Source: an uncultured Flavobacteriaceae bacterium | GTDB taxonomy: Bacteria > Bacteroidota > Bacteroidia > Flavobacteriales > Flavobacteriaceae | Assembly: GCA_947488345.1 (NCBI GenBank) | Contig: CANKZQ010000001.1 | Span: forward strand, 660,518 to 724,517 | Direction of reading: 5' to 3' | DNA: 64,000 nucleotides | Position numbers and translations under genes: made by a program | The notes under the pieces: model-generated | The model's database searches: none | Told to the model about the DNA's origin: nothing | What the model saw: the letters and a program-made list of their open reading frames with translations, nothing else | Shown here: positions 2,362-52,871 of the stretch, one piece after another | Position numbering within the stretch: position 1 is the first letter of the stretch | How the letters are laid out: every line of letters starts with the position of its first letter

Positions 2362-4272
2362 TTATTCTTCCTTTACTTCTTCGAAGTCTACATCTTGTAC
2401 ATCATCACCTTCTGCAGCACCCTGAGCTCCAGCGTCAGCTCCAGGAGCTGCACCAGCACCTTGTGCTTCTTGTTGTGCTTTATACATTTCTTCAGATGCT
2501 ACTTTCCAAGCTTCATTGATCTTTTCCATTGCGGCATCAATTTGCGCTAGGTCTTTAGATTCATGTGCAGCTTTTAATTCTGTCAATGCAGCTTCAATTG
2601 GCTCTTTTTTATCGGCTGATAACTTATCCCCGAACTCACTTAGTTGTTTTTCTGTTTGGAAAATCATACCGTCAGCTCCATTGATCTTATCAGCAGTTTC
2701 TTTCGCAGCTTTATCCGCTTCAGCGTTTGCTTCTGCGTCAGCTTTCATTTTTTGAATTTCTTCATCTGTTAAACCAGAAGAAGCTTCAATACGAATGTTA
2801 TGCTCTTTTCCAGTACCCTTATCTTTTGCAGATACATTGATAATACCATTAGCATCAATATCAAATGTCACTTCAATTTGAGGTACACCTCTTTGTGCTG
2901 GTGGAATTCCATCTAAATGAAAACGACCAATTGTTTTATTATCGGCAGCCATCGCACGCTCTCCTTGCAATACATGAATTTCTACAGATGGTTGGTTATC
3001 AGCAGCTGTTGAGAATACTTGTGATTTCTTCGTTGGAATCGTCGTATTTGCTTCAATCAATTTTGTCATTACATTACCCATTGTCTCAATACCTAAGGCT
3101 AACGGCGTTACATCTAATAACAATACATCTTTTACATCTCCAGTCAATACTCCACCTTGAATTGCAGCACCAACGGCAACTACTTCATCAGGATTCACTC
3201 CTTTATGCGGATCTTTTCCAAAAAACTTCTTTACTTCTTCTTGAATTCTCGGAATTCTTGTAGAACCACCTACTAAAATAACCTCGTCAATTTCAGCTGT
3301 AGATAAATCGGCATCTTTCAATGCTTTTGCTACAGGTGTCATTGAACGCTTTACTAAATTATCGGCTAATTTTTCGAAAGCAGCTCTTGTCAATGATCTT
3401 ACTAAGTGCTTTGGTCCACTAGCAGTAGCCGTAACATATGGTAAGTTTATCTCTGTTTGCGTAGAAGATGATAATTCAATCTTCGCTTTTTCAGCAGCTT
3501 CTTTTAAACGTTGCAAAGCCATCGGGTCTTTACGCAGGTCCATGTTTTCATCTTTCTCAAACTCTTCTGCTAACCAATCGATAATTACTTGGTCGAAATC
3601 ATCACCACCTAAGTGCGTATCACCATTTGTTGATAATACTTCAAATACACCATCACCAATTTCTAAGATAGAGATATCAAATGTACCACCACCTAAATCA
3701 TACACTGCTATTTTCTTATCAGCTCCCGACTTATCCAAACCATATGCCAATGCAGCAGCAGTAGGTTCATTGATAATACGACTTACTTTTAAACCAGCAA
3801 TTTCACCAGCTTCTTTTGTCGCCTGACGTTGTGCATCATTAAAGTATGCAGGCACTGTCACTACAGCTTCAGTTACAGTTGTACCTAAATAGTCTTCAGC
3901 CGTTTTTTTCATTTTTTGTAACACCATTGCAGAAATTTCTTGCGGTGTATACATTCTTCCATCTATGTCAACTCTTGGTGTGTCGTTATCTCCTTTTACC
4001 ACTTTATAAGGTACACGCTCTGCTTCTTTTTTAGATTCAGAGTATTTATTACCCATAAAACGTTTGATAGAATACACCGTTTTGGTAGGATTAGTTACGG
4101 CCTGACGTTTTGCAGGGTCACCAACTTTACGCTCACCACCTTCAACAAAAGCAACAATAGAAGGGGTTGTTCTTTTACCTTCAGCATTTGGGATTACAAC
4201 AGGCTCGTTTCCTTCCATTACAGAAACACATGAGTTGGTTGTTCCTAAATCTATTCCTATTATTTTACTCAT
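2362..4272 (-). CDS. dnaK: Chaperone DnaK (Hsp70)
   Basis: [47 protein letters not shown] motifs. Confidence 0.99.
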
Positions 4273-4321
4273 AATATATAGTTAATTTAATTTTTGTTTG
4301 TTTTTATTACACTCTCAAATA

Positions 4322-4394
4322 GTCAATCATTATGCCATTGCTATTTTTTTTGTGTTTTGACAGAAAAATTCACTAAATAATGACATAGTGGCAG
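4322..4394 (-). promoter_or_regulatory. Putative sigma54-like -24/-12 promoter (TGGCAT-N5-TTGA) plus upstream TGACA boxes for dnaK
   Basis: Minus strand 4337-4322 reads TGGCATAATGATTGAC; TGACA at 4358 and TGACATAGTGGCAG at 4381. Confidence 0.45.
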
Positions 4395-4531
4395 AAAAAA
4401 CGGATACATCTACATCTATTGAGACAGCATATAGCTATTTTAATCGGCAGAAAAACGGGTTGTTTTACAAAAATTTGATTCTTATTTTAATTTCGGCTAA
4501 CTTCGTAAGAACCAATTTTAAATTCATCATA

Positions 4532-5131
4532 ATGACTTCAAGAGTAAACTACGTTTCTATAATTTTCATAAGTCTGATTTTCATTACAACGCTCTCTTGT
4601 TCTAAAGAAAAAACCTACGATATTGGGCAGATCATCACGCCTAAAGGCGAAATTTTAGTTTGGTTACATGATGAAACACCGAAGCATAAGGCCAGTTTTA
4701 TAGAACTCGCGAATAAGGGTTATTGGGATTCGTTAACTTTTAATAGAGTCATTCCTGATTTTGTAGCACAAGGTGGCTGCCCCGATACTCCAGAAGGTTT
4801 TAACGATCCTGAATATTTGTTAGCACCTGAGTTCAATGACAATTTACTTCATGAATATGGCGCCTTAGGAGCTGGAAGAGATGGTAATAAAGAAAAATTA
4901 TCAGCTAGATGTCAGTTTTATATTGTCCAAAATAAAGAAGGACTACATCGTCTAGATGGTGATTATACCGTGTTTGGAAAAGTTATAATGGGTATGGATA
5001 TTATAGACACCATAGTGAAGGTAGATCGCGATTCTTTGGATGCTCCAATGACTCCAATTTCATTAGACGTGAATATGATTTCAATGACAGCGACAGAACT
5101 ACAAAAATTATATCCTCTACCCCAGGAATAG
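4532..5131 (+). CDS. Cyclophilin-type peptidyl-prolyl cis-trans isomerase, lipoprotein
   Basis: FNRVIPDFVAQGG, QFYIV, LDGDYTVFGKVI motifs; lipobox LSC; ATG 4532 preferred over GTG 4388. Confidence 0.9.
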   Translation: MTSRVNYVSIIFISLIFITTLSCSKEKTYDIGQIITPKGEILVWLHDETPKHKASFIELANKGYWDSLTFNRVIPDFVAQGGCPDTPEGFNDPEYLLAPEFNDNLLHEYGALGAGRDGNKEKLSARCQFYIVQNKEGLHRLDGDYTVFGKVIMGMDIIDTIVKVDRDSLDAPMTPISLDVNMISMTATELQKLYPLPQE

Positions 5132-5217
5132 AATCTAAAAATAGCGCAAAAAAAATTACAATTCAATACATTGACAGGTAGTAAGGATTACTTACATTAG
5201 CCAAAATTTCGTACGTA

Positions 5218-6639
5218 ATGGAAAGCATTAGTATTTTCGACATGTTAAAAATTGGTATTGGCCCATCAAGCTCCCACACACTCGGCCCTTGGCGAGCTGC
5301 AGAAAGATGGATTGCCAAATTAAAAGCTAATAATGAATTTGATGATATTACACATATTGCTGTCGATTTATATGGTTCTTTGTCCTTAACGGGAAAAGGA
5401 CATGCAACCGATCTAGCGGTTATACTAGGCTTGTCTGGAGCCGATCCTGAAACAGTGCCCGTAACATCTATAGATACCACTGTTGCTCACGTTAAAAAAA
5501 CTCAAACGCTACTTCTCAACAACGAAAAAGAATTAACCTTTGATATTGATAAACATATAAAATTTAATAGAGATTTTTTGCCTTTTCATGCCAATGGCAT
5601 GACATTTACCGCAACCATTGGTGCTAAAAAAATAGCAGACACCTACTACTCTATCGGTGGTGGTTTTGTTGTAAAAGAAGAACGAAAAAATGCTAAAAAA
5701 AACATCGCAGTTTTTAATACTTTTCCATACCCAATTCAAAAAAGTGCTGAACTCTTAGATTTTTGTCATCAACTCAATAAGCCTATTTCTGGGGTTGTAT
5801 TAGAAAATGAGAAGTCTTTACGAAAGGAGGACAAAATAGATGCCGAAATTCAACGTGTTTGGGCAACTATGTTAGAATGTATGTATATAGGTTGCCATAC
5901 TGAAGGAAATCTTCCTGGCGGATTGAATGTTCGAAGAAGAGCTTATGACATTCATCAAAAATTAAAAGGAGATTTACCTTATAACTCACCGACTACTTGG
6001 CTACATACGATCCGAAAAACAGAGGTGAAATTTCGCCAGATATTGAAATGGGTGAGTTGCTTTGCTTTAAGTGTTAATGAAGTAAATGCATCTCTGGGGC
6101 GCGTAGTCACTGCTCCTACAAATGGAAGTGCAGGTGTCATTCCTGCCGTATTGATGTATTATATGGTTATTGAAAATCACAATGCCGACTTCAAACATAT
6201 AAAGCAATTTTTATTAGTTGCTGGAGAAATTGGTAGTATCTTCAAAAAAGGAGCGACTATTTCAGCAGCGATGGGAGGATGTCAAGCAGAAATTGGCGTA
6301 TCTTCCGCCATGGCCGCTGCCGCTTTATGTGAACTATTAGGAGGCACACCTGAACAAGTCATGATCGCCGCAGAAATTGCGATGGAACATCATCTCGGAC
6401 TCACATGTGATCCTATTGGTGGATTGGTACAAATACCATGTATCGAACGCAATTCTATGGGAGCTATCAAAGCGATTCATGCTGCTGAACTGGCACTAGA
6501 TACTGATCCGAAAAATGTAAAAGTACCCTTAGATAAAGTTGTAGATACCATGTGGAAAACCGCTAAAGACATGCATGCCAAATATAAAGAAACATCAGAA
6601 GGCGGCTTGGCTGTTACTGTGGGGTTGTCGGATTGTTAA
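5218..6639 (+). CDS. sdaA: L-serine ammonia-lyase (Fe-S, fused alpha/beta)
   Basis: [61 protein letters not shown]. Confidence 0.97.
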
Positions 6640-6653
6640 CGCGTCCATATCGA

Positions 6654-6741
6654 GTGTCACCTTGAGCGGAGTCGAAAGGTCAATTTAAGAAAAATAATTT
6701 TATGCATTAACTCTGGATTCCTGCTTTTGCAGGAATGACAC
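6654..6741. repeat. Composite of two REP-like palindromic units (TGTC-tagged) in opposite orientation
   Basis: TGTCACCTTGAGCGGAGTCGAAAGG (6655-6679) and CTGGATTCCTGCTTTTGCAGGAATGACA (6713-6740, ATTCCTGC/GCAGGAAT stem); bounded by GTGTCA/TGACAC. Confidence 0.6.
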
Positions 6742-6742
6742 A

Positions 6743-7384
6743 TCATTTTATCTCAATCTTCTCACCTAAAAATTTAGGCTGAACGTTGAAAAGGATATCC
6801 ACAAATACTTTTGTTCTCGCCAAATATTCTCGCAATTGAACTTTTAGTCCATACCTTCCTGAAACATTTTTAGCATTGAATCCAACAGCATTGATATCGA
6901 AGTTTTCTGCCAAATAAATAGCTCGTTCATTGTGAAATTCTTGTGAAATAATAGTCACACTGTCTTGTCCGAAAATTTCCTTTACTCTCACTACAGAATC
7001 TAAAGTTCTAAAACCTGCATAATCTAAAAAAATCTTATCCTCAGGAATTCCAGCAGCCACCAAATCATTTTTAAAATCAGTCGGTTCGTCGTAGCTCGAA
7101 GTGCTATTGTCTCCACTCACAATAATATACCTAATTTTTCCTGCTGTATATAAAGAAACTGTCGCTTTTATTCTATATGTATAATATAAATTTATTTGTC
7201 CGTTTTGAAGTCGCTTCACAGTTCCGAGAACCAATCCTACCTTATTTTTAGGTGTAGATTCAACTGTTTCAAACACTTTATTCTTTGCGTTTTTTTCAAT
7301 AGCATAATTAGACAGTACAATAACTAAGAAGAGTATACCGGCTAAAAGGAGTGCAATCTTAATACTTTTCTTTAACCGCCTCAT
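6743..7384 (-). CDS. sanA: SanA/YdcF (DUF218) family protein
   Basis: LVLGT, IIVSGDN...YDEP, DYAGFRTLDS, ISQEFHNERA, REYLAR motifs. Confidence 0.88.
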   Translation of the reverse strand: MRRLKKSIKIALLLAGILFLVIVLSNYAIEKNAKNKVFETVESTPKNKVGLVLGTVKRLQNGQINLYYTYRIKATVSLYTAGKIRYIIVSGDNSTSSYDEPTDFKNDLVAAGIPEDKIFLDYAGFRTLDSVVRVKEIFGQDSVTIISQEFHNERAIYLAENFDINAVGFNAKNVSGRYGLKVQLREYLARTKVFVDILFNVQPKFLGEKIEIK

Positions 7385-8143
7385 CTACCGTGTAAAAACA
7401 AGTTCTGTTTCGGTAGACATATTTGCATCAAAACCGTACCCTTCGGTGTTAAAGCCTTTCAATCCTTCAACTGTTTCAATATCATTATCAATGATATAAC
7501 GTAACATATATCCTCTTGCTAACTTCGCGAAGGTCATAATCGTTTTATATTCACCATTCTTAAAGTCTTTAAAAACAGGTGTGATCATGGGTGTTTTTAA
7601 TAGTTTAGGTTTGATCACTTTGAAATACTCTTTACTGGCTAAATTAATTAAAGGCTCACCATCTACTAACTCATTATTTAGGGCATTCGTAATCGTAGTA
7701 TCCCAAAATTGATACAGATTGTCTTTTCTTCCAATTTTTAACTTCGTCCCCATTTCAAGACGATAGGCTTGCATTAAATCCAAAGGTTTTAATAAGCCAT
7801 ATTGCCCAGAGAGTATGCGTAACTTATCTTGTAATTGATCTAACTTACTTGCCGGGAGTGAATCGACATCAAATCCACGAAACACATCACCTCGAAACGC
7901 ATAAATAGCTTGTTTTGAATTCTCGAGTGTGAACGGCACATTCCAGTCCTGATTTCGTTGAAAATTCAATTGCCCAAGTGCATCCGAAACACTCATTAAT
8001 TTTGAGATTTGTTTCGCACTTTTCTTTTTAAGAACTCCATTCAATTTTTGTGCCTGCTCTAAAAAAACAGGTTGTGTAAACTCAGAGGTTGCGGCTTTCG
8101 TTTCAAATTCTAAAGATTTCGCGGGAGAGAGTATTATTTTCAT
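7385..8143 (-). CDS. yaaA: Peroxide stress protein YaaA
   Basis: ILSPAKSL, ILSGQYGLLKPLDLMQAYRLEMGT, INLASKEY, AKLARG. Confidence 0.95.
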   Translation of the reverse strand: MKIILSPAKSLEFETKAATSEFTQPVFLEQAQKLNGVLKKKSAKQISKLMSVSDALGQLNFQRNQDWNVPFTLENSKQAIYAFRGDVFRGFDVDSLPASKLDQLQDKLRILSGQYGLLKPLDLMQAYRLEMGTKLKIGRKDNLYQFWDTTITNALNNELVDGEPLINLASKEYFKVIKPKLLKTPMITPVFKDFKNGEYKTIMTFAKLARGYMLRYIIDNDIETVEGLKGFNTEGYGFDANMSTETELVFTR

Positions 8144-42994: not shown

Positions 42995-44341
42995 TTAATT
43001 ACATCCTAAATCATTTCTTGATTGCTCATCATTATTTGGGAAACAAAACCCAGACAATACCTCAGCAGGAACATAGCGCAATAAATTAGGATCATATAAT
43101 GACTTTTCAATAAAAGCTGTTAAATCATCTATTTCTGCTGGAGTTAAATTTAACCCTCCAAAGCCTTCCGCTAATTGCGAATCTGGAACGTCACCATTTT
43201 GTTTTACCCCGGCGTTGATATATTCGATTACCTCACGAACAGTCGTAAAAGTACCACCATGACCATAAAAAGGGTTGTCGGTTAAATTATATAGATTAGG
43301 AACTTTAAATTTAAAATTATCTTCTGGTCTATTAGTAAAAGCTGCACGTCCAATGAGTACATCTTTCTTAAAGCTTTTACTATTCGTACTATTAATTCCA
43401 ACCAAGTCTCCCATACCTAGTGCATAAAAATCATTAGATTTCAAGGAAGGTCCTGTATGACAGTCGGTACATCTACCCTTGGTCATAAACGTAATCGCAC
43501 CTCTCTTTTCTTGATCACTGATGGCATTGAGATTTCCTTTTAACCATTCTTGCCAAGGAGCTTGATTCGCAAGTACAGTTCTATTGAATGAAGCGATCGC
43601 TAAGGCTCCCGTCAAACGAGAATATCGTTCATCTTCAGGCACATTAGGAAACGCAGCATCGAACATGGCTTTATATCCAAATTCTTCAGCAAACTCTTCA
43701 TCAATTTTGAGTCTATGAGCCGTTTGACCAGCCATACCTTGCACTTCCAAGCCTTCAAAACCTAATAAATTATCGGGTTGATCTGTAGCATTTGTACCTG
43801 TATTTACAAAAGGTTCATTAATTCCGGCTCCTCCAAGAGAACCATTCCATAGCATTACATCTTGATAGGCTACGTTTAATAACGACGGTACTTTAATAGA
43901 AAGAATATCCACTGAATCACTAGGCATTGCAGGATTCATTATTCTATTCTCTCCGGCCACACCGAATCCTATACCACCTTCGCCAATTCCTTGTAATGCC
44001 CCTGAATAAAAACCTGAAGCAACAGGATGACAACTTGCACAAGCATAAGTAAATTTACTTCCATCCATTTTAGGAACACCGCCTGTAGCAGTTTCATGCA
44101 CCAACAGCTTACCTAAAGCTACTTTTTCTGGTGTTAAAGGGTTTAATGGATCTTGAGGAATACTTGAGAGATCATCTTCACTTGGTAAAATAAAGAAGTC
44201 ATTACCCTGTCCGTCAGAGACAGTAATAATCTGATCTATCAATTTCTGATCTAAGGGTGAAATTTTAACTGGAGTATACGCATCGTCCTTGTTACATGAA
44301 CATAACAATATAAACGATAAAACTATCCCGAACTTTTTCAT
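42995..44341 (-). CDS. Di-heme cytochrome c peroxidase / MauG-family lipoprotein
   Basis: Two CxxCH motifs (CASCH, CTDCH); LWNG; FKVPNL.N...PFYGHGG; lipobox CSC-NKDD. Confidence 0.9.
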   Translation of the reverse strand: MKKFGIVLSFILLCSCNKDDAYTPVKISPLDQKLIDQIITVSDGQGNDFFILPSEDDLSSIPQDPLNPLTPEKVALGKLLVHETATGGVPKMDGSKFTYACASCHPVASGFYSGALQGIGEGGIGFGVAGENRIMNPAMPSDSVDILSIKVPSLLNVAYQDVMLWNGSLGGAGINEPFVNTGTNATDQPDNLLGFEGLEVQGMAGQTAHRLKIDEEFAEEFGYKAMFDAAFPNVPEDERYSRLTGALAIASFNRTVLANQAPWQEWLKGNLNAISDQEKRGAITFMTKGRCTDCHTGPSLKSNDFYALGMGDLVGINSTNSKSFKKDVLIGRAAFTNRPEDNFKFKVPNLYNLTDNPFYGHGGTFTTVREVIEYINAGVKQNGDVPDSQLAEGFGGLNLTPAEIDDLTAFIEKSLYDPNLLRYVPAEVLSGFCFPNNDEQSRNDLGCN

Positions 44342-44551
44342 AGCAAATAAAATTTTACGGATTTATCTGTGACAAATATATGATTTATTTTGTAAGTAAT
44401 AGGAAAATTCACGTCTATAAACGTTTGTCCCTCTTAATTTTAACATATTTAACATCATTATTTTCGGAAGAATCTTCACATTACAGCAGAAACTGACATC
44501 ACTTTTTTTAGTCTAATCAACATTCTATTGATGCAGATCTAGCTCATTGTC

Positions 44552-45187
44552 TTATTCCTTTTTAAGAATATCAATGTGTCTCTTCAAGCGTTCTAAATCG
44601 AACTTTAAGGTACCATTATACACGCCTCGTATAAAACCTTCCTTATCAACGAGGATAAAATTTTCGGTATGAATAAACTCACTCTCGTCTTGCGTTTTCT
44701 TAAAATCTTCATCTGCGAAATATCCTTTTCGCGCTATTTCATATAATTCTTTTTTGTCTCCAGTTACTAAATTCCATTTTTTAGCGTCTATCTGATTATT
44801 TTGTTCGTATTCCTTTAACTTATCAACCGTATCCACCCACGGCATTACCGAATGAGATAGTAATAGAATTGCAGAATCATTCTTATAATACTCTTGAAGT
44901 ACATTCATATTCTTTGTTAACTTTGGACAAATACCAGGACAGGTAGTGAAGAAAAAATCTGCAACATAAATATGACCTTCATAATTTTTATTTGAAATTG
45001 TTTTTCCGTTTTGATTCACAAATGAAAATTCAGGTATCCGATGCGTTCCTTTCGTCCATTGCGGGGTAAAATCAGCAGAATTAAAATATGGTAAAGAAGT
45101 AACTTCTCTTTCTTTAGTAAGCACCTCATTTTCTTTTTTACAAGAAAAAACCAGCAGTAATAAAAAAACGTACATCAAGCTTTTCAT
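44552..45187 (-). CDS. SCO1/SenC copper-chaperone family lipoprotein
   Basis: FFTTCPGICP (CxxxC) and FIHTENF His; lipobox FSC. Confidence 0.93.
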   Translation of the reverse strand: MKSLMYVFLLLLVFSCKKENEVLTKEREVTSLPYFNSADFTPQWTKGTHRIPEFSFVNQNGKTISNKNYEGHIYVADFFFTTCPGICPKLTKNMNVLQEYYKNDSAILLLSHSVMPWVDTVDKLKEYEQNNQIDAKKWNLVTGDKKELYEIARKGYFADEDFKKTQDESEFIHTENFILVDKEGFIRGVYNGTLKFDLERLKRHIDILKKE

Positions 45188-45756
45188 TTTAAAAGTTTTA
45201 AGGTGTTTTTATTTTCGGTAACTGTATAGCATTTTTTTAACCCTATTAATCCATATCGCTCACCATCATCTGCAACATAATTGGTGGCAATTTTACCATT
45301 TTGTTTCCATATTTTCTGACTTCCCTGTTCCTTTCCATCTTTGTAGTTAAAGCTCTTTAGAAGTTTACCATTGACATACCACTCTTTTAGACTTCCATGG
45401 TAAAATCCTTTTTCGTTAAAATAAAATTCAAATTTTTTATTTCCATTTGGCCACCATCCTTTATGAATTCCTACTTTAACTCCTCTATTGTACATTCTTA
45501 ATTCAGCCAAAGAATCATTGAAATATTTCTTAACTTCTTTGCCATGTTTACGTCCGTTTATGTACGAAGTTCTTTTTTTCATTTGACTGAATCGATTACT
45601 ATCTAATACGATTCCACTAAATGTGTTTTCTTGGTAAAATAATTTGCCGTTTTTTAAAACAAGATTAGAATCTTCTTTGGGCACAACGAGTACTGTACTT
45701 TTCTCACATGAAGATAGCATACAAAATCCGATAAGTAAAAGGAATACGTTTTTCAA
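45184..45756 (-). CDS. MORN-variant repeat (YwqK-like) lipoprotein
   Basis: GRKHG, GVKVG.HKGWWPNG, YHGSLKEWYVNG, GKEQG repeats; lipobox SSC. Confidence 0.82.
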   Translation of the reverse strand: MKNVFLLLIGFCMLSSCEKSTVLVVPKEDSNLVLKNGKLFYQENTFSGIVLDSNRFSQMKKRTSYINGRKHGKEVKKYFNDSLAELRMYNRGVKVGIHKGWWPNGNKKFEFYFNEKGFYHGSLKEWYVNGKLLKSFNYKDGKEQGSQKIWKQNGKIATNYVADDGERYGLIGLKKCYTVTENKNTLKLLK

Positions 45757-45758
45757 AA

Positions 45759-46514
45759 TTATCTAGATATATTTCCTGGTGTCCCAAAAAAACCATTACC
45801 ATTAATATAAGGGTCCTGATCGGTTATATGATAATGGTAAATCCCTTCAGGGAAATCGGCCGTAACCGAAGTATGGCCGTGAAATTCATCTAAATCTGAG
45901 TTAGAAAGTCTTGTTCCGTTTTCTACGGGACCATAGACTGGAAATCCATCTGCTAATAAGCCAAGAAAAGCATCATCACCAAATTCTTGAGTTAAAAAGG
46001 TTGGTTCTATATGATAATGATATTGAGTTCCTGCAGGATGTCCAAACCATTGATCGAATGAATCAATTTCATTTGTTAATGCCGCACCTCCTGCCGCATA
46101 CTGATTGTAAAAAATAACGCCATTTCTTGAGATGCCAATAGGGCCCATGGGTGTTGCTTCTTTGTTTACAGCTTCGGCGGGATTTAAGGAAATTGTAAAT
46201 GTTATATTCTGTTCTCCAATTGAGTTTGGATTTTGTCTCCAATTTGTATTTGTACCATTATAATCTTCATACAAAGGGTTATTTATTGGCCAATAAGGAC
46301 TTGTATGATTGGGTAGATCTGTAGTATTAATGGTTACTGTATTGCCATTTACCTCATATGAAACCGCTTCTATACCATCAAACTTCGACAAAATAGTAGT
46401 AATATCATAACTTGTTACAGAATCAAATTCTTCGTCATCTGCGCCAGAATCATTAGAGCTACATGCTATAAATATCCCGAGAGAAACTACTAATATTGTT
46501 TTTTTAATATTCAT
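45759..46514 (-). CDS. YHYH-domain lipoprotein
   Basis: GHP...QYHYH and GH...IYHYH motifs; GISRNGV..YN; DGFPVYGP; lipobox IAC; start MNIKK at 46514. Confidence 0.9.
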   Translation of the reverse strand: MNIKKTILVVSLGIFIACSSNDSGADDEEFDSVTSYDITTILSKFDGIEAVSYEVNGNTVTINTTDLPNHTSPYWPINNPLYEDYNGTNTNWRQNPNSIGEQNITFTISLNPAEAVNKEATPMGPIGISRNGVIFYNQYAAGGAALTNEIDSFDQWFGHPAGTQYHYHIEPTFLTQEFGDDAFLGLLADGFPVYGPVENGTRLSNSDLDEFHGHTSVTADFPEGIYHYHITDQDPYINGNGFFGTPGNISR

Positions 46515-46584
46515 TTTATATTTTTCCATTACTATTTTTTTAATTACTTCAACACTCTAATTTCGAAGCCCATAATTAAATAAG

Positions 46585-47904
46585 CTATTGTCTGATATTT
46601 GTTATTTCGGTCGTTAGTTCGTCTTTAATCGCACTATCGGCATCACTCAATGGCAATTGATTTTGATTCAGAAGATTTGGGTTTTCTAACGCATTATTAC
46701 TCAAATTGTAAAATGCTTCGTTGCCGTTTTCAAATCGAATATATTTATGAGTGCTATTCCTTATTGTATAATCAAAACCCCCATTATCCTTACCTATTTC
46801 TGTATATATATAATCTCTAAAGTTAACGTTTGGAATGGTAAATAATTCTTTGAAGCTCTTACTATCATTTATTTCAACAGTACCCGTTTCTGCAATATCA
46901 GCAATTGTTGCAAAAATATCGGTTGTATTTAGCAATGCATCTTCTATTTGATTCACCCTTGTCACGTTTTTGCCTGAAATGATCATTGGAACATTTACCC
47001 CACCTTGATATACACTGCCTTTTGCACGTTGTCCTGCGTATTCTTGAGCTACTTGATTGGGAGTCCCATTATCTCCAATAAAAATAATTACTGTATTATC
47101 TTTCTCCTCTGTTGACAATGAATTTAATAATCTTCCTATTTCGGAATCCATGGCTTCTAACATTGCCAAATAATAGGGAAGCGGATTCGCATCTATACTC
47201 CCATCATCTGTTGGTAGCGAACCTTGCGAATGCAAGTTAGAAGGTGGCAGATGAAAAGGTGTATGAGGCGCATTATACGCCAACCATAAAAACCAAGGTT
47301 GAGTTTGTGTATCAATCCAATCAATCGCTAAATCTGTAAACTTTGTTGTTGTATACTCAGATGAGTTGTTGGTTTGACCATTCTCCGTAAAATTCCAATT
47401 TGTGTATGATTGAACACCTCCACTTAATAATCCTGCATAATATCCCACTCCCATATGTAAAGGATGTTGAGTATCTCTAGACAAATGCCATTTACCAATG
47501 ACGGCATGACTATATCCAGCATTACTATTATCTAAATACTTTTGAATTGAAGTTTCTGATGTTGATAATACATCATCAACTTTCATAACATTCGTTCTAA
47601 ATCCATATTTACCTGTCAATATACTTGATCTCGTTGGTGTACAGGTCGGATAAGACCAGAGATTATTAAATCTAACACCACTATTGATCATTTCTTGAAG
47701 ATTAGGCATATTAGGTTTCTGGGTTCCTATACTATACCCTGGTGTTGCGTCTAAACCCATGTCATCTGCAATAATTAGTAAAATATTCGTCTTAGATTCT
47801 GAAGAGTTATCTCCATCTTGAATATCTGAAACTAGAGATCCATTATCACTACAAGAAAGAAATATGATCATTACTAAAAAGAGTCTTGATAATTTTGAGT
47901 GCAT
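46585..47904 (-). CDS. Cys-type sulfatase lipoprotein
   Basis: NILLIIADDMG, CTPTRSSILTG (CxPxR), GKWHL, YNAPHTPFH, GDNG; lipobox LSC. Confidence 0.92.
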   Translation of the reverse strand: MHSKLSRLFLVMIIFLSCSDNGSLVSDIQDGDNSSESKTNILLIIADDMGLDATPGYSIGTQKPNMPNLQEMINSGVRFNNLWSYPTCTPTRSSILTGKYGFRTNVMKVDDVLSTSETSIQKYLDNSNAGYSHAVIGKWHLSRDTQHPLHMGVGYYAGLLSGGVQSYTNWNFTENGQTNNSSEYTTTKFTDLAIDWIDTQTQPWFLWLAYNAPHTPFHLPPSNLHSQGSLPTDDGSIDANPLPYYLAMLEAMDSEIGRLLNSLSTEEKDNTVIIFIGDNGTPNQVAQEYAGQRAKGSVYQGGVNVPMIISGKNVTRVNQIEDALLNTTDIFATIADIAETGTVEINDSKSFKELFTIPNVNFRDYIYTEIGKDNGGFDYTIRNSTHKYIRFENGNEAFYNLSNNALENPNLLNQNQLPLSDADSAIKDELTTEITNIRQ

Positions 47905-47920
47905 ATGTTTTGGTTTCCTG

Positions 47921-47948
47921 TTAGACTACTACAATGCCTCAAGGTTTA
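47921..47948 (-). promoter_or_regulatory. Putative ECF-sigma promoter for the sulfatase-YHYH cluster
   Basis: Minus strand TAAACC-N16-GTCTAA ending 16 nt upstream of the ATG. Confidence 0.45.
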
Positions 47949-47960
47949 AAATACCATTAA

Positions 47961-47992
47961 AAAAATAAAGCCTCCCTTTAAAGGGAGGCTTT
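47961..47992 (-). terminator. aqpZ terminator (perfect 26-bp palindrome)
   Basis: AAAGCCTCCCTTTAAAGGGAGGCTTT at 47967-47992; U-tract on minus strand. Confidence 0.8.
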
Positions 47993-48018
47993 AAAACATA
48001 AAAACATTAGTTCGTCAA

Positions 48019-48840: not shown

Positions 48841-49044
48841 ATGAAATTACTTCTCATAACATTGGCTTTATTAGGTTTGGCTTTCGCAGGGATCGCCATT
48901 AAAATTTGGGCAAAAAAAGATGGTGAGTTTGCTGGTACCTGTGCCAGTCAAAATCCGATGCTGAACAAAGATGGAGACTCATGTGGATTTTGTGGCAAAA
49001 CTCCAGATCAGTTTGACACCTGTAAAGAACCTCAACATAATTAG
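48841..49044 (+). CDS. Small single-TM protein with four Cys (NqrM-like architecture)
   Basis: TM helix then GTCAS...CGFCG...C; TATCTTTG promoter upstream. Confidence 0.65.
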   Translation: MKLLLITLALLGLAFAGIAIKIWAKKDGEFAGTCASQNPMLNKDGDSCGFCGKTPDQFDTCKEPQHN

Positions 49045-50174: not shown

Positions 50175-50732
50175 ATGAAAGAAACAATAGAAATTACAAC
50201 CGCCATCATGAACGCTAAAAAAGGCGAGGAAGGTGCCTATACCCTATTGTTAAATACATACTGGAAAGATGTCTATCGCTTTCAATACAGCAAAACAGAT
50301 GACGAAGAAGAGGCAGAAGACATTACGATTAAAACCTTTGCTAAAGCGTTTGATAAAATTTCAACGTTCAAAGAAGATTATAAATTCAAAACGTGGCTTA
50401 TCTCTATTTCTAAAAATATTTATATTGACCATCTGCGCAAGCAAAAAACTGAGACAGTTTCCTTAAGCAAAGAAAATGATGCCTATAAGGTTAAAGATGA
50501 CGAACCTACTCCAGTAGATAAACTCATTATAGAACAAAATTTGGCACAATTATTAAGCTACATCAAACAGCTAAAGCCGCACTATCAAGAGATCATCCAT
50601 TTGCGTTTTTTTAAAGAAATGAGCTATAAAGAAATTGCATCTAATTTAGATGAGCCTATGAATAATGTCAAGGTAAAATTGCTCCGCGCCAAGAAACTAC
50701 TCGCAGAAATTATTAAAAAATCAGATTCTTAA
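50175..50732 (+). CDS. ECF RNA polymerase sigma factor
   Basis: Region 2 (AEDITIKTFAKAF...FKTWL...N..ID.LRK) and region 4 (SYKEIA...VKVKLLRAK). Confidence 0.92.
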   Translation: MKETIEITTAIMNAKKGEEGAYTLLLNTYWKDVYRFQYSKTDDEEEAEDITIKTFAKAFDKISTFKEDYKFKTWLISISKNIYIDHLRKQKTETVSLSKENDAYKVKDDEPTPVDKLIIEQNLAQLLSYIKQLKPHYQEIIHLRFFKEMSYKEIASNLDEPMNNVKVKLLRAKKLLAEIIKKSDS

Positions 50733-50765
50733 AAATTTAGTACTTTCACCTCTTTATATGTTTAT

Positions 50766-51983
50766 ATGAAGAAATTACTACAATCTTTAGGCCCCGGACT
50801 TTTATTCGCTGGCGCCGCAATTGGGGTCTCTCATTTAGTGCAGTCAACCAGAGCAGGAGCTGACTTTGGCTTTGGTTTACTTTGGGCACTTTTACTGGTA
50901 AATCTCTTTAAATATCCATTTTTTCAATATGGGCCTAGGTATGCAGCCGCGACGGGTGAAAGTTTAATTGATGGCTATAAAAAATTAGGTAAAGGTATAC
51001 TTATTGCCTATTATGTCTTAACCTTTGCTACCATGTTTACAATTCAGGCCGCTGTGACGATCGTAACTGCCGGTTTAGCTGCAAACCTTTTTGGTATTGC
51101 GCTTAGTCCTACGGTATGGACTATTATTATTACCATTATTTGCCTCTCTATACTAATGATTGGTAAATATAAATTCTTAGATAATTTTATTAAAATCATC
51201 ATCATTACCTTAACATTGAGTACTATTATTGCTGTAGTAATTGCCGTTTTTAATATCGGCACACCTCAGAGTTTTGCACAAACTTTTCCTCAAGGCAGCC
51301 TCGAAATTGCTTTTTTAATTGCTTTTTTAGGATGGATGCCCGCACCACTCGACATTTCAGCTTGGCATTCTCTCTGGGCCTTAGAAAAACAGAAAAATAC
51401 GAAAGATGACTTCAATATGAAAAAAACCATGTTCGATTTTAACTTGGGTTATATTGGCACTGTTTTTTTAGGGGTCTGTTTTATTAGTTTAGGAGCTTTA
51501 GTTATGTTCGGATCTGGAGAACAATTTAGCAGCGCTGCCGGTAAATTTGCTCAGCAGCTCATTCATTTATATACAGAAAACCTGGGTGAGGCTACTTCCA
51601 TATTTGTCGCTATCGCTGCTTTTACAACCATGTTCAGCACAACTTTAACCACTTTAGATGCCTCACCAAGAGCCATGGCACGATCTACCGAACTAATCTT
51701 CGATAAAACATATAAATACAATTATTTAAGTTGGATATTATTATTAGCTGCAGGTACTATTATCATTTTATCTTTTTTCATCTCTAATATGATCACCATG
51801 GTGAAAATTGCGACTATTTTATCATTCTTAACCGCTCCTTTTTATGCTATTGCCAATTTTATGTTGATTTCAAGTAAGCATACTCCTCAACAATGGCGAC
51901 CATCGAAAGCAATGAAAATATTAAGTTATTTGGGGATTATTTTCTTGATCGGATTTAGTATTTGGTATTTAATGAATTTGTAA
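50766..51983 (+). CDS. NRAMP/APC-superfamily transporter
   Basis: LGPGLLFAGAAIGVSHLVQSTRAGA, GWMPAP, FTTMFSTT. Confidence 0.8.
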   Translation: MKKLLQSLGPGLLFAGAAIGVSHLVQSTRAGADFGFGLLWALLLVNLFKYPFFQYGPRYAAATGESLIDGYKKLGKGILIAYYVLTFATMFTIQAAVTIVTAGLAANLFGIALSPTVWTIIITIICLSILMIGKYKFLDNFIKIIIITLTLSTIIAVVIAVFNIGTPQSFAQTFPQGSLEIAFLIAFLGWMPAPLDISAWHSLWALEKQKNTKDDFNMKKTMFDFNLGYIGTVFLGVCFISLGALVMFGSGEQFSSAAGKFAQQLIHLYTENLGEATSIFVAIAAFTTMFSTTLTTLDASPRAMARSTELIFDKTYKYNYLSWILLLAAGTIIILSFFISNMITMVKIATILSFLTAPFYAIANFMLISSKHTPQQWRPSKAMKILSYLGIIFLIGFSIWYLMNL

Positions 51984-52004
51984 CTTTGTATTCTAATTTT
52001 AGTT

Positions 52005-52871
52005 ATGGCAGTAACACCCGAAATAGCACCAGTCAAAAAACCAAAATGGTTACGAGTTAAGCTACCTGTTGGTAAAAAGTATACTGAACTTCGCGGTTTA
52101 GTTGATAAATACAATCTTCATACTATTTGTACAAGCGGAAGTTGCCCGAATATGGGAGAATGCTGGGGAGAAGGTACGGCTACATTTATGATTTTAGGAA
52201 ATATCTGTACACGCTCTTGCGGATTTTGTGGAGTTAAAACCGGTAGACCTGATACTGTAGATTGGGAAGAACCAGAAAAAGTGGCGCGTTCTATTAAAAT
52301 CATGCAGATAAAACATGCCGTGATTACCTCTGTTGATCGGGATGATTTAAAAGATGGAGGCTCTATCATTTGGGCCGAAACCATCAATGCGATTCGAAGA
52401 GCAAATCCAACAACTACCCTCGAAACATTGATTCCAGATTTTCAATTAATTCATAAAAACATAGATAGAATTGTAGCTGTGGCACCTGAGGTTGTTTCTC
52501 ATAATGTTGAAACTGTGCGTCGCTTAACCCGTGAAGTACGTATTCAGGCGAAATATGATCGAAGTTTAGCTGTGTTGAAATATCTAAAAGACAGTGGAAT
52601 CAATCGAACCAAGTCTGGAATTATGCTTGGCTTAGGTGAATTAGAAGAAGAGGTCATTCAAACTATGAAAGACCTAAGAACTGCAAAAGTAGATGTGGTG
52701 ACGATTGGTCAATACTTACAGCCGAGTAAAAAACACCTTCCTGTAAAAGAATTTATTACTCCAGAACAGTTTAAAAAATATGAGACCATTGGACTCGAAA
52801 TGGGCTTCAGACATGTTGAAAGTGGAGCCTTGGTAAGGTCGTCATATAAAGCTCAAAAACACATCCTCTAA
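52005..52871 (+). CDS. lipA: Lipoyl synthase
   Basis: [33 protein letters not shown]. Confidence 0.98.

Follow-up and report, generated by a model that had tools for sequence, protein, structure and literature searches.

A YHYH, MORN-like and SCO lipoprotein trio behind ECF-type promoters in Bacteroidota: a candidate envelope module with optional sulfatase and di-heme genes

Introduction

Do five adjacent lipoprotein genes in an uncultured Flavobacteriaceae bacterium form one system, and what might their products do outside the cytoplasm? This question is raised by a locus on contig CANKZQ010000001.1 of assembly GCA_947488345.1 (positions 660,518 to 724,517). Within this 64-kb stretch, the whole of which was analysed and is here called the window, five genes follow one another in the same direction on the minus strand (42995-47904) and encode a sulfatase, a protein of the YHYH family, a MORN-like repeat protein, an SCO1/SenC-family protein and a di-heme cytochrome c. 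The window is A+T-rich (G+C content about 35%) and its nearest relatives are marine Flavobacteriaceae. An earlier reading of the DNA (hereafter the original prediction) had treated the five genes as one extracytoplasmic system for copper-dependent or oxidative maturation, in which YHYH might be loaded with copper by SCO or modified by the di-heme protein, and might mature or partner the sulfatase.

Bacteroidota dominate the breakdown of marine algal polysaccharides, and their handling of copper and of envelope stress is poorly known. By comparing the window with more than 170 related loci (designated here by L numbers), we found that the evolutionary unit is the trio of YHYH, MORN-like and SCO genes, to which the sulfatase and di-heme genes are optional additions. 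The explanation that we favour, with a probability of roughly 45%, is that the trio belongs to an envelope module controlled by extracytoplasmic function (ECF) sigma factors, in which SCO would supply copper to a YHYH metalloprotein or maintain its redox state.

Results

Conservation of the gene cluster

The main comparison used 80 YHYH-centred genome loci, all from Flavobacteriaceae, which were the best 80 of 362 matches. Open reading frames (ORFs) in the compared loci were taken from stop to stop, grouped by BLAST and matched against the proteins of the window; a sulfatase-centred scan covered metagenome contigs. The YHYH, MORN-like and SCO genes occur together and in the same order in all 76 loci that have room for all three. 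Outside the Flavobacteriaceae, the trio was detected in Spirosomataceae, Chitinophagaceae, Microscilla and two more metagenome-derived genomes, where its internal order varies; the classes Cytophagia and Chitinophagia are among its carriers. Moreover, about 9 of the 80 loci contain a second complete trio, whose products differ considerably from those of the first (30-38% identity for YHYH, 26-30% for the MORN-like protein and 45-49% for SCO). Because these second copies come complete, the trio appears to duplicate as one block. The loci listed with a second trio are L018, L022, L026, L033, L034, L040, L041, L045, L067 and L075.

In 28 of 77 loci the gene immediately before YHYH is that of the sulfatase; a sulfatase gene is found anywhere within 8 kb of the trio in 32 of 80, which leaves 48 without one. 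Viewed from the sulfatase side, a YHYH gene adjoins 4 of the 19 orthologs that have at least 55% identity and both flanks. No di-heme gene of the type seen in the window is present in any of the 80 YHYH-centred loci, and in the nearest relative (L001, with a YHYH protein 84% identical) the SCO gene runs straight into murB. All five kinds of gene are assembled in L059, in the order di-heme, sulfatase, YHYH, MORN, SCO. Gene-neighbourhood co-occurrence had been named as a check on the idea that the five genes constitute one system. It bore out the association of YHYH, MORN-like and SCO genes but neither that of the sulfatase nor that of the window-type di-heme gene, and the obligate five-gene system was rejected on these counts. 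In the loci examined, neither a SusC/SusD pair or other hallmark of polysaccharide utilisation nor any cox gene was found near the trio.

Promoters and sigma operons

The operon is set apart from the upstream gene, aqpZ, by a strong intrinsic terminator of the latter (47966-47993, minus strand), which consists of a 12-bp G+C-rich stem followed by a T run and marks the 5' boundary of the operon. Downstream of it, at 47921-47947 on the minus strand, a motif match revealed a putative ECF-type promoter, AAACCTT-N14-GTCTAA. The corresponding consensus, TTAAAC(C/T)TTT-N14-GTC(T/A)(A/T)A (type 1), was derived from aligned regions upstream of sulfatase orthologs and has a 14-nt spacer in 145 of 160 instances; its layout, read as AAC-N17-GTC, corresponds to the classic ECF arrangement. 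Scored with a matrix from related loci, the window site reaches 23 bits and is the sole match in 64 kb (chance expectation 0.01), no other site in the window attaining 12 bits. A scan with the sigma-70 consensus returned no more matches than shuffled sequence.

Type-1 sites precede the sulfatase gene in 28 loci and the YHYH gene in 16 loci without a sulfatase; 41 of the 80 loci have one before either gene. Such footprinting across orthologous operons strongly supports the earlier claim of an ECF-type promoter before the first gene. The type-1 motif also stands before a convergent downstream ECF sigma operon in 37 loci, and before the second gene of that operon in 33. Besides an ECF sigma factor, this operon encodes two proteins, one in the membrane (about 160 aa) and one in the periplasm (about 150 aa; c9). 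The latter has no conserved His, Cys or Met and resembles proteins of the Spy/CpxP type. Since ECF sigma genes are usually autoregulated and the motif precedes the sigma operon, the simplest reading is that the sigma factor of this operon would also drive the sulfatase/YHYH operon.

A second motif (type 2), AAGTTT-N13-CATCTAA, whose spacing is fixed in 110 of 118 assigned instances, precedes another ECF operon, which in 39 of 80 loci is found upstream of the trio and co-oriented with it. The motif is also present before YHYH (34 loci), before EF-hand, CotH and VTC genes and before the di-heme orthologs of L082, L171 and L172. The operon, called CnrHYX-like here, encodes a sigma factor and two further proteins: one of about 105 aa that crosses the membrane once, and one of about 165 aa that is anchored in the membrane and has PF13801 (Metal_resist)/LTXXQ similarity. 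In its CnrX-like sensor, which has a membrane anchor, His65 and His118 are invariant and Cys126 is mostly conserved across classes. Every non-flavobacterial locus examined has a CnrHYX-like operon next to the trio, except that of Microscilla (L088), where no sigma operon lies upstream. A sigma factor, a small anti-sigma factor and a PF13801 sensor are encoded beside effector genes in L082, L086, L087, L169, L170 and L171.

Both motifs recur inside their own sigma operons, directly upstream of the anti-sigma gene (type 1 at L003 12194, minus strand, with equivalents in 33 loci; type 2 in 36 loci), and the anti-sigma and downstream sensor genes may be transcribed apart from the sigma gene.

Neither type of trio-linked sigma operon is present in the window. 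Its sole ECF sigma gene (50175-50732) encodes a protein with about 25% identity to both trio-linked sigma factors and is preceded by no copy of either promoter; it was discarded as the cognate sigma gene on these grounds. This gene, which has no adjacent anti-sigma gene, opens a plus-strand stretch (50175-52868) that continues with an NRAMP-family metal transporter gene (50766-51983) and lipA, an order that is kept in many related loci.

The YHYH, MORN-like and SCO proteins

Inspection of the motifs and signal peptides supported the earlier description of five co-oriented lipobox genes. A lipobox Cys ends each signal peptide: C18 in the sulfatase, C23 in YHYH, C17 in the MORN-like protein and C16 in both SCO and the di-heme protein. 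The family labels also stood for four of the proteins; the label MORN held only in part.

The YHYH gene (45759-46529, minus strand) encodes a lipoprotein of 256 aa that matches PF14240 with an E value of 1.6e-19 (71 bits, against a cut-off of 25). Its two YHYH motifs are encoded at 46011-46022 and 45828-45839, and an HGH motif at 45873-45881. The family is rare and accounts for 1826 clusters out of 1.84 billion representatives. In the flavobacterial genera sampled, close relatives have 64-84% identity, and 92 representatives sharing less than 50% identity conserve H75, D159, H164, Y170, H171, Y172, H173, D194, D214, H219, H232, Y233 and H234, a set that includes seven His and three Asp. Besides the lipobox Cys, the protein has no Cys, and there is neither a family-wide conserved Trp nor a conserved Met.

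An AlphaFold2 model based on a 90-sequence alignment, which included relatives from Cytophagia and Chitinophagia, reached a pLDDT of 89. A model from a shallow alignment (45 sequences, 64-84% identity) had given a pLDDT of 62, was unusable and was replaced. The HxH pairs sit on predicted beta-strands, and the His side chains of a pair would for that reason be expected to face the same side. One divergent, minimal YHYH subfamily lacks the second His group and keeps the first, which suggests one universal and one additional site.

Searches against the PDB yielded no neighbour of YHYH by fold (Foldseek; best E 0.42, TM-score below 0.2) and nothing by sequence at E values up to 1, and no NCBIfam family matched. 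Likeness to MbnP, to the formylglycine-generating enzyme (FGE), to lytic polysaccharide monooxygenases (LPMOs) and to cupredoxin, PCuAC and CopC was ruled out by these sequence, family and Foldseek searches. No copper protein of the PDB resembles YHYH by sequence or fold, a result that does not support the original prediction. Among the viral models of BFVD, Foldseek matched only YHYH proteins, including those of cyanophages at E 6e-11. Phage YHYH proteins have been predicted to act as Zn hydrolases in phage tails, with domains fused to tail proteins and lectin domains (PMC7824862). This one-paragraph prediction and some passing mentions are the literature that we found on YHYH function.

Two nucleotides after the YHYH stop codon, a TTG start opens the gene for the MORN-like lipoprotein (45184-45756, minus strand; 190 aa), which has putative repeats of the YwqK type. 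It remains below the MORN_2 cut-off of 29.6 bits (19.5 bits for the window protein and 24 bits for that of L087), and its family profile matches the MORN domain of SET7/9 weakly (E 0.004). The repeat Trp and Gly residues and Cys176 (45229-45231) are kept across classes, Cys176 being invariant.

The SCO gene (44552-45187, minus strand) overlaps the MORN-like gene by 4 nt and encodes an SCO1/SenC-family lipoprotein of 211 aa (PF02630, E 7e-26), with CPGIC at 44927-44941 and His173 at 44669-44671. Cys83, Cys87 and His173 are invariant in 88 of 88 sequences, including those of paralogous trios. The distal His is an established copper ligand in Sco1 and in BsSco. The nearest PDB relative is Sco of B. 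subtilis (1xzo and 1on4, E 7e-22); the protein has a thioredoxin fold and weak matches to AhpC/Redoxin.

The sulfatase and the di-heme protein

The first gene of the operon encodes a Cys-type S1 sulfatase lipoprotein of 439 aa (46585-47904, minus strand; PF00884, E 1.9e-44) and ends 55 nt before YHYH. Its CTPTR motif lies at 47629-47643 (residues 88-92), and all 31 orthologs retain both the lipobox and CxPxR. Among solved structures, carrageenan sulfatases (S1_16 and S1_19) come nearest to it. The original prediction had remarked that the cluster contains neither FGE nor anSME, and this agrees with a motif search, as distinct from a full profile scan, which found no FGE motif and no anSME-type radical-SAM motif in the ORFs of the window; the sole CxxxCxxC among them belongs to lipA.

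The type-1 promoter is kept by 11 of 33 sulfatase orthologs of at least 55% identity. Because it is kept without linkage to YHYH, the sulfatase looks like a free-standing regulon member that is sometimes fused to the trio operon. More distant sulfatases, 45-52% identical to that of the window, stand beside YHYH genes of other subfamilies in 9 of 34 loci; these YHYH proteins (24-36% identity, 320-350 aa) are without a MORN or SCO partner. In total, YHYH adjoins 14 of the 79 sulfatase relatives analysed and is within the locus in 16. Given how rare the YHYH family is, we consider the sulfatase-YHYH link to be real, and it is facultative. In L120, L124 and L160, moreover, sulfatase genes adjoin members of another di-heme subfamily, in L120 behind a 25-bit type-1 promoter. 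Both pairings, sulfatase with YHYH and di-heme with sulfatase, thus recur in several unrelated subfamilies, and to this extent the association that had been pointed out in the window is upheld.

Other YHYH subfamilies beside sulfatases were seen in L121, L123, L127-L130, L137, L138, L156, L157 and L160; some of these lipoproteins have a His-rich insert and some lack the second YHYH motif. In L129 and L130, the sulfatase/YHYH pair lies amid sugar transporters and a PF11790 glycoside hydrolase secreted by the type IX secretion system (T9SS).

The di-heme gene (42995-44341, minus strand) is separated from SCO by an intergenic gap of 210 nt (44342-44551) and converges on murB. Its product is a c-type lipoprotein of 448 aa (PF03150, E 6e-16), with heme-binding motifs CASCH at 44027-44041 and CTDCH at 43457-43471, Trp165 at 43847-43849 and Tyr374 at 43220-43222. 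Among 120 homologs, Tyr374 is invariant, Trp165 is 98% conserved and no conserved Met is found in the C-terminal heme domain. PDB matches are CcpA and BthA, and the alignment puts Tyr374 a single column ahead of the CcpA Met ligand and of the corresponding BthA Tyr. The NCBIfam models for MauG-like proteins, MbnH and MauG match far below their cut-offs. By its residues, the protein fits a MauG-type His/Tyr heme rather than a peroxide-detoxifying cytochrome c peroxidase (CcP), a distinction drawn in the literature (PMC11892367). The earlier label, CcP/MauG family, would then stand for its MauG-like half and not for a canonical peroxidase.

All di-heme orthologs of at least 67% identity lie in an ECF locus, and in L081, L082 and L171 they follow SCO. 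Those of at most 63% identity (in Aquimarina, Dokdonia and Cochleicola) are solitary, with unrelated genes around them. In the window, neither ECF promoter type occurs in the 210-nt gap (no site of at least 12 bits), which holds a TATATTTG box at 44373-44380 that we take to resemble the Bacteroidota housekeeping -7 element; the orthologous gaps in L082, L171 and L172 hold a type-2 promoter. Because of this gap, and because orthologs have their own type-2 promoter, it is unlikely that the di-heme gene is on the same transcript as SCO. In L172 (Spongiimicrobium sp., 3414-7518), a di-heme ortholog and a BNR lipoprotein gene follow directly on the CnrHYX-like operon with no trio between, as if the trio had been swapped out of that slot.

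Other genes of the locus and its relatives

A BNR/Sortilin/Ycf48-like beta-propeller lipoprotein of about 350 aa is encoded directly after SCO in 31 of 80 loci (e.g., L003 10024-11130, and L002). Its gene also follows the di-heme gene in L171 and L172; the window does not encode such a protein. Co-oriented EF-hand, VTC (PF09359), DUF4956, DUF2490 and CotH-kinase (PF08757) genes often form a block between the CnrHYX-like operon and the trio (L003, L022, L026, L029 and others), several of these genes being behind a type-2 promoter. The complete order in L029 is sigma, anti-sigma, LTXXQ, EF-hand, VTC, DUF4956, DUF2490, CotH and YHYH. Such a block suggests a link of the regulon to polyphosphate or calcium.

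Between aqpZ and a glycosyltransferase gene, the window has a conserved 67-aa ORF (48841-49044, plus strand), which was also found in L011 and L030. Its product, which matches no Pfam family, has a transmembrane helix at the N terminus and ends in a Cys-rich tail (C..C..C..C).

Discussion

The favoured explanation

We suggest that the sulfatase, YHYH, MORN-like and SCO genes form a four-gene operon that would be transcribed from the ECF-sigma-dependent promoter, and that the MauG-type di-heme gene, after its 210-nt gap, is promoted separately. The five lipoprotein products would act outside the cytoplasm, with the trio as the functional unit. SCO would bind copper through Cys83, Cys87 and His173 and hand it to the His/Asp-rich YHYH protein, or else keep YHYH redox-competent; YHYH itself would be a metalloprotein whose fold has no solved relative, and the MORN-like lipoprotein, with its one invariant Cys, may serve as a scaffold or relay. 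Envelope or metal stress would switch the module on through two ECF systems. One of these appears to be built like CnrH-CnrY-CnrX, with a sigma factor, an anti-sigma factor (about 105 aa, single-pass) and a PF13801 sensor that is anchored in the membrane and has invariant His residues; the other would read the promoter type found in the window. The sulfatase and the di-heme protein would be facultative members of the regulon, not obligate partners, and the BNR beta-propeller lipoprotein and the EF-hand/VTC/CotH block would be optional additions to those regulons. As to regulation and architecture, this explanation is well supported. The involvement of copper, the relation of SCO to YHYH, the physiological role and the stress signal are what we infer from the conserved residues and gene neighbourhoods.

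Several points weigh against this explanation. The c9 partner of the type-1 sigma factor lacks conserved His, Cys and Met, so that this branch need not sense metal. YHYH proteins of phages and of other bacterial subfamilies occur without SCO, and the phage domains are predicted Zn hydrolases (PMC7824862). The recurrent sulfatase and glycoside hydrolase neighbours point to a glycan substrate rather than to metal homeostasis. Moreover, no paper on the module was found, and the sequencing runs found to hold the region are of DNA only, with no RNA runs among them.

Alternative explanations

A tentative proposal is that YHYH represents a new class of extracytoplasmic copper enzyme, defined by an unseen fold, two HxH His clusters on beta-strands and dedicated metallation by SCO and the MORN-like protein. 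Its sulfatase-linked versions, possibly together with the di-heme protein, would oxidatively mature or assist a Cys-type sulfatase outside the cytoplasm.

It is also possible, if doubtful, that YHYH is a copper enzyme loaded by SCO which acts with the sulfatase on an extracellular or envelope substrate, most likely a sulfated glycan, with sulfated phenolics as another possibility. The di-heme protein would then handle peroxide or be a redox partner, the BNR lipoprotein would be a glycan binder or glycosidase, and the ECF systems would induce the set on meeting the substrate or its toxicity. The sulfatases of this clade, whose closest solved relatives are carrageenan sulfatases, adjoin YHYH genes of at least three subfamilies, and one such pair is surrounded by sugar transporters and the T9SS-secreted PF11790 protein. 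The recurrence of the BNR gene after SCO (31/80) and after the di-heme gene (L171, L172) and the fusion of phage YHYH to tail and lectin domains (PMC7824862) are likewise consistent with a glycan substrate. However, a sulfatase within 8 kb is lacking in 48 of 80 trio loci, most of the close sulfatase orthologs do not adjoin YHYH, SusC/SusD and other polysaccharide-utilisation hallmarks are absent near the trio, and by its fold YHYH resembles none of the known carbohydrate-active enzymes, among them the LPMOs.

A role without copper appears unlikely. Here YHYH would be a zinc or other non-copper metallohydrolase and SCO a thiol-disulfide oxidoreductase or peroxide scavenger, and together with the di-heme protein they would repair or protect the envelope under oxidative or general stress. 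Three His and an Asp make up a typical zinc-hydrolase set, as predicted for YHYH (PMC7824862), and the minimal subfamily keeps the first His cluster only. The thioredoxin fold of SCO with its weak AhpC/Redoxin matches, the Spy/CpxP-like c9 without metal ligands and the invariant Cys of the MORN-like protein, which could form a mixed disulfide, fit such a role as well. But a pure thiol reductase needs no copper-ligand His, and His173 of SCO is invariant; YHYH would not be a disulfide substrate, because its only Cys is in the lipobox; and the di-heme protein appears to carry the Tyr seen in MauG where peroxide-detoxifying CcPs have Met.

Assembly of CuA in heme-copper oxidases is an improbable function of the trio. 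SCO, as a bona fide Sco-family protein, would act on subunit II, and YHYH and the MORN-like protein would replace a missing chaperone of the PCuAC type. The named relatives come from the aerobic classes Flavobacteriia, Cytophagia and Chitinophagia, and among trio loci the extracytoplasmic, His-rich YHYH is always paired with SCO, as this function would lead one to expect. Against it, cox genes are missing near the trio in the examined loci, the trio is duplicated in some genomes and stands under stress-type ECF sigma factors, and YHYH has no conserved Met of the Cu(I)-chaperone kind.

The idea of the original prediction, in which copper-loaded YHYH, perhaps with the MauG-type enzyme, turns Cys88 of the sulfatase into formylglycine outside the cytoplasm and so provides a third maturation route, is in our view very improbable. 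It draws on a Cys-type lipoprotein sulfatase that would be exported before folding, on the window being without FGE and anSME by motif search, and on recurrent adjacency: of sulfatase and YHYH across subfamilies, of di-heme and sulfatase genes as two-gene units (L120, L124 and L160, one of them behind the same ECF promoter), and of all five genes in L059. Yet the search for FGE and anSME covers the window, and a maturase could lie elsewhere in the genome. One would not look for the maturase of a whole sulfatase complement under the control of a stress sigma factor; sulfatase genes are missing within 8 kb of the trio in 48 of 80 loci, and YHYH does not adjoin 15 of the 19 close sulfatase orthologs that have sequence on either flank; furthermore, YHYH has neither the copper-binding Cys pair of the FGE type nor similarity to the FGE fold.

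Chance juxtaposition of unrelated lipoprotein genes has next to no likelihood, and for the cluster's core it is already contradicted. In its favour, both the sulfatase gene and the di-heme gene are often located elsewhere, and a 210-nt gap precedes the latter. Against it, the trio is an invariant unit, the operon promoter is shared by the sulfatase in 28 loci, every di-heme ortholog with at least 67% identity belongs to the same ECF locus, and YHYH, rare as it is, stands beside 14 of 79 sulfatase relatives and in the locus of 16.

Significance

The comparison defines a phylum-wide module of Bacteroidota, consisting of the trio, two recognisable ECF promoters and a CnrX-like sensor, and the promoter motifs make its regulon predictable in any complete genome. 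The orphan YHYH family (PF14240), which also occurs in diatoms, cyanophages and giant viruses, thereby gains its first concrete and testable partners. If YHYH is the client of SCO, it would present a copper centre of a new type, set in a fold that is also new. In addition, the sulfatase and MauG-like links bear on the old question of how formylglycine arises in bacteria without a known maturase.

Comparison with known systems

The closest parallel on the regulatory side is CnrYXH of Cupriavidus metallidurans, which senses nickel and cobalt (PMC6851896). The related loci share with it an ECF sigma factor, a small single-pass anti-sigma factor and a membrane-anchored PF13801/LTXXQ sensor, as well as an apparently autoregulated operon with envelope effector genes adjoining. 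However, the effectors here are YHYH-MORN-SCO lipoproteins instead of an RND (resistance-nodulation-division) efflux pump, the sigma gene comes first, and the CnrX ligands His42, His46, Glu63, His119 and Met123 are not reproduced in the sensor of the related loci; the window itself lacks a CnrHYX-like operon.

Copper delivery by Sco proteins offers a second parallel. Sco1, SenC and BsSco serve CuA, and Sco of Streptomyces serves GlxA. Here, too, a tethered thioredoxin-fold protein with CxxxC and His is encoded beside its presumed client, but that client would be YHYH, which has no solved fold. Further differences are the obligatory MORN-like partner, the absence of cox genes nearby, the ECF control and the paralogs of the whole module.

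MbnH, a di-heme enzyme similar to MauG, oxidises a Trp of MbnP, the copper-binding protein with which it is paired. As in MbnH/MbnP and MauG/preMADH (PMC11892367), the di-heme protein has two CxxCH motifs, with a putative inter-heme Trp and a Tyr that may take the place of the Met ligand, and is encoded beside a putative metal-binding protein; copper-related neighbours and ECF control are further likenesses to MbnH/MbnP. In contrast to MbnP, YHYH has no family-wide Trp and is not MbnP by NCBIfam or PDB fold, and no other gene of the cluster is a candidate for an MbnP-family partner. The di-heme gene is, moreover, usually unlinked from YHYH, and L172 has it without the trio.

With sulfatase maturation by FGE or anSME, the locus has in common a Cys-type CxPxR sulfatase that needs formylglycine, and SCO would bring in copper chemistry. 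Unlike what would be required here, the known maturases modify their substrates in the cytoplasm or endoplasmic reticulum, ahead of export or while it proceeds. No such motif or fold was recognised in the cluster or window, and the linkage of sulfatase and YHYH is facultative.

The viral YHYH proteins of phages and giant viruses (PMC7824862) are related to that of the window by sequence (PF14240) and by structure (Foldseek E 6e-11 to cyanophage proteins), but in the viruses the domain is joined to tail or lectin domains, lacks a SCO or MORN partner and is a predicted zinc hydrolase.

In the searchable literature, we did not find a description of the YHYH-MORN-SCO trio combined with two promoters and a CnrX-like sensor. 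All of the families except YHYH, ECF-controlled metal determinants and Sco-dependent metallation are already known, and there is a substantial chance that YHYH adds to them a new kind of metalloenzyme.

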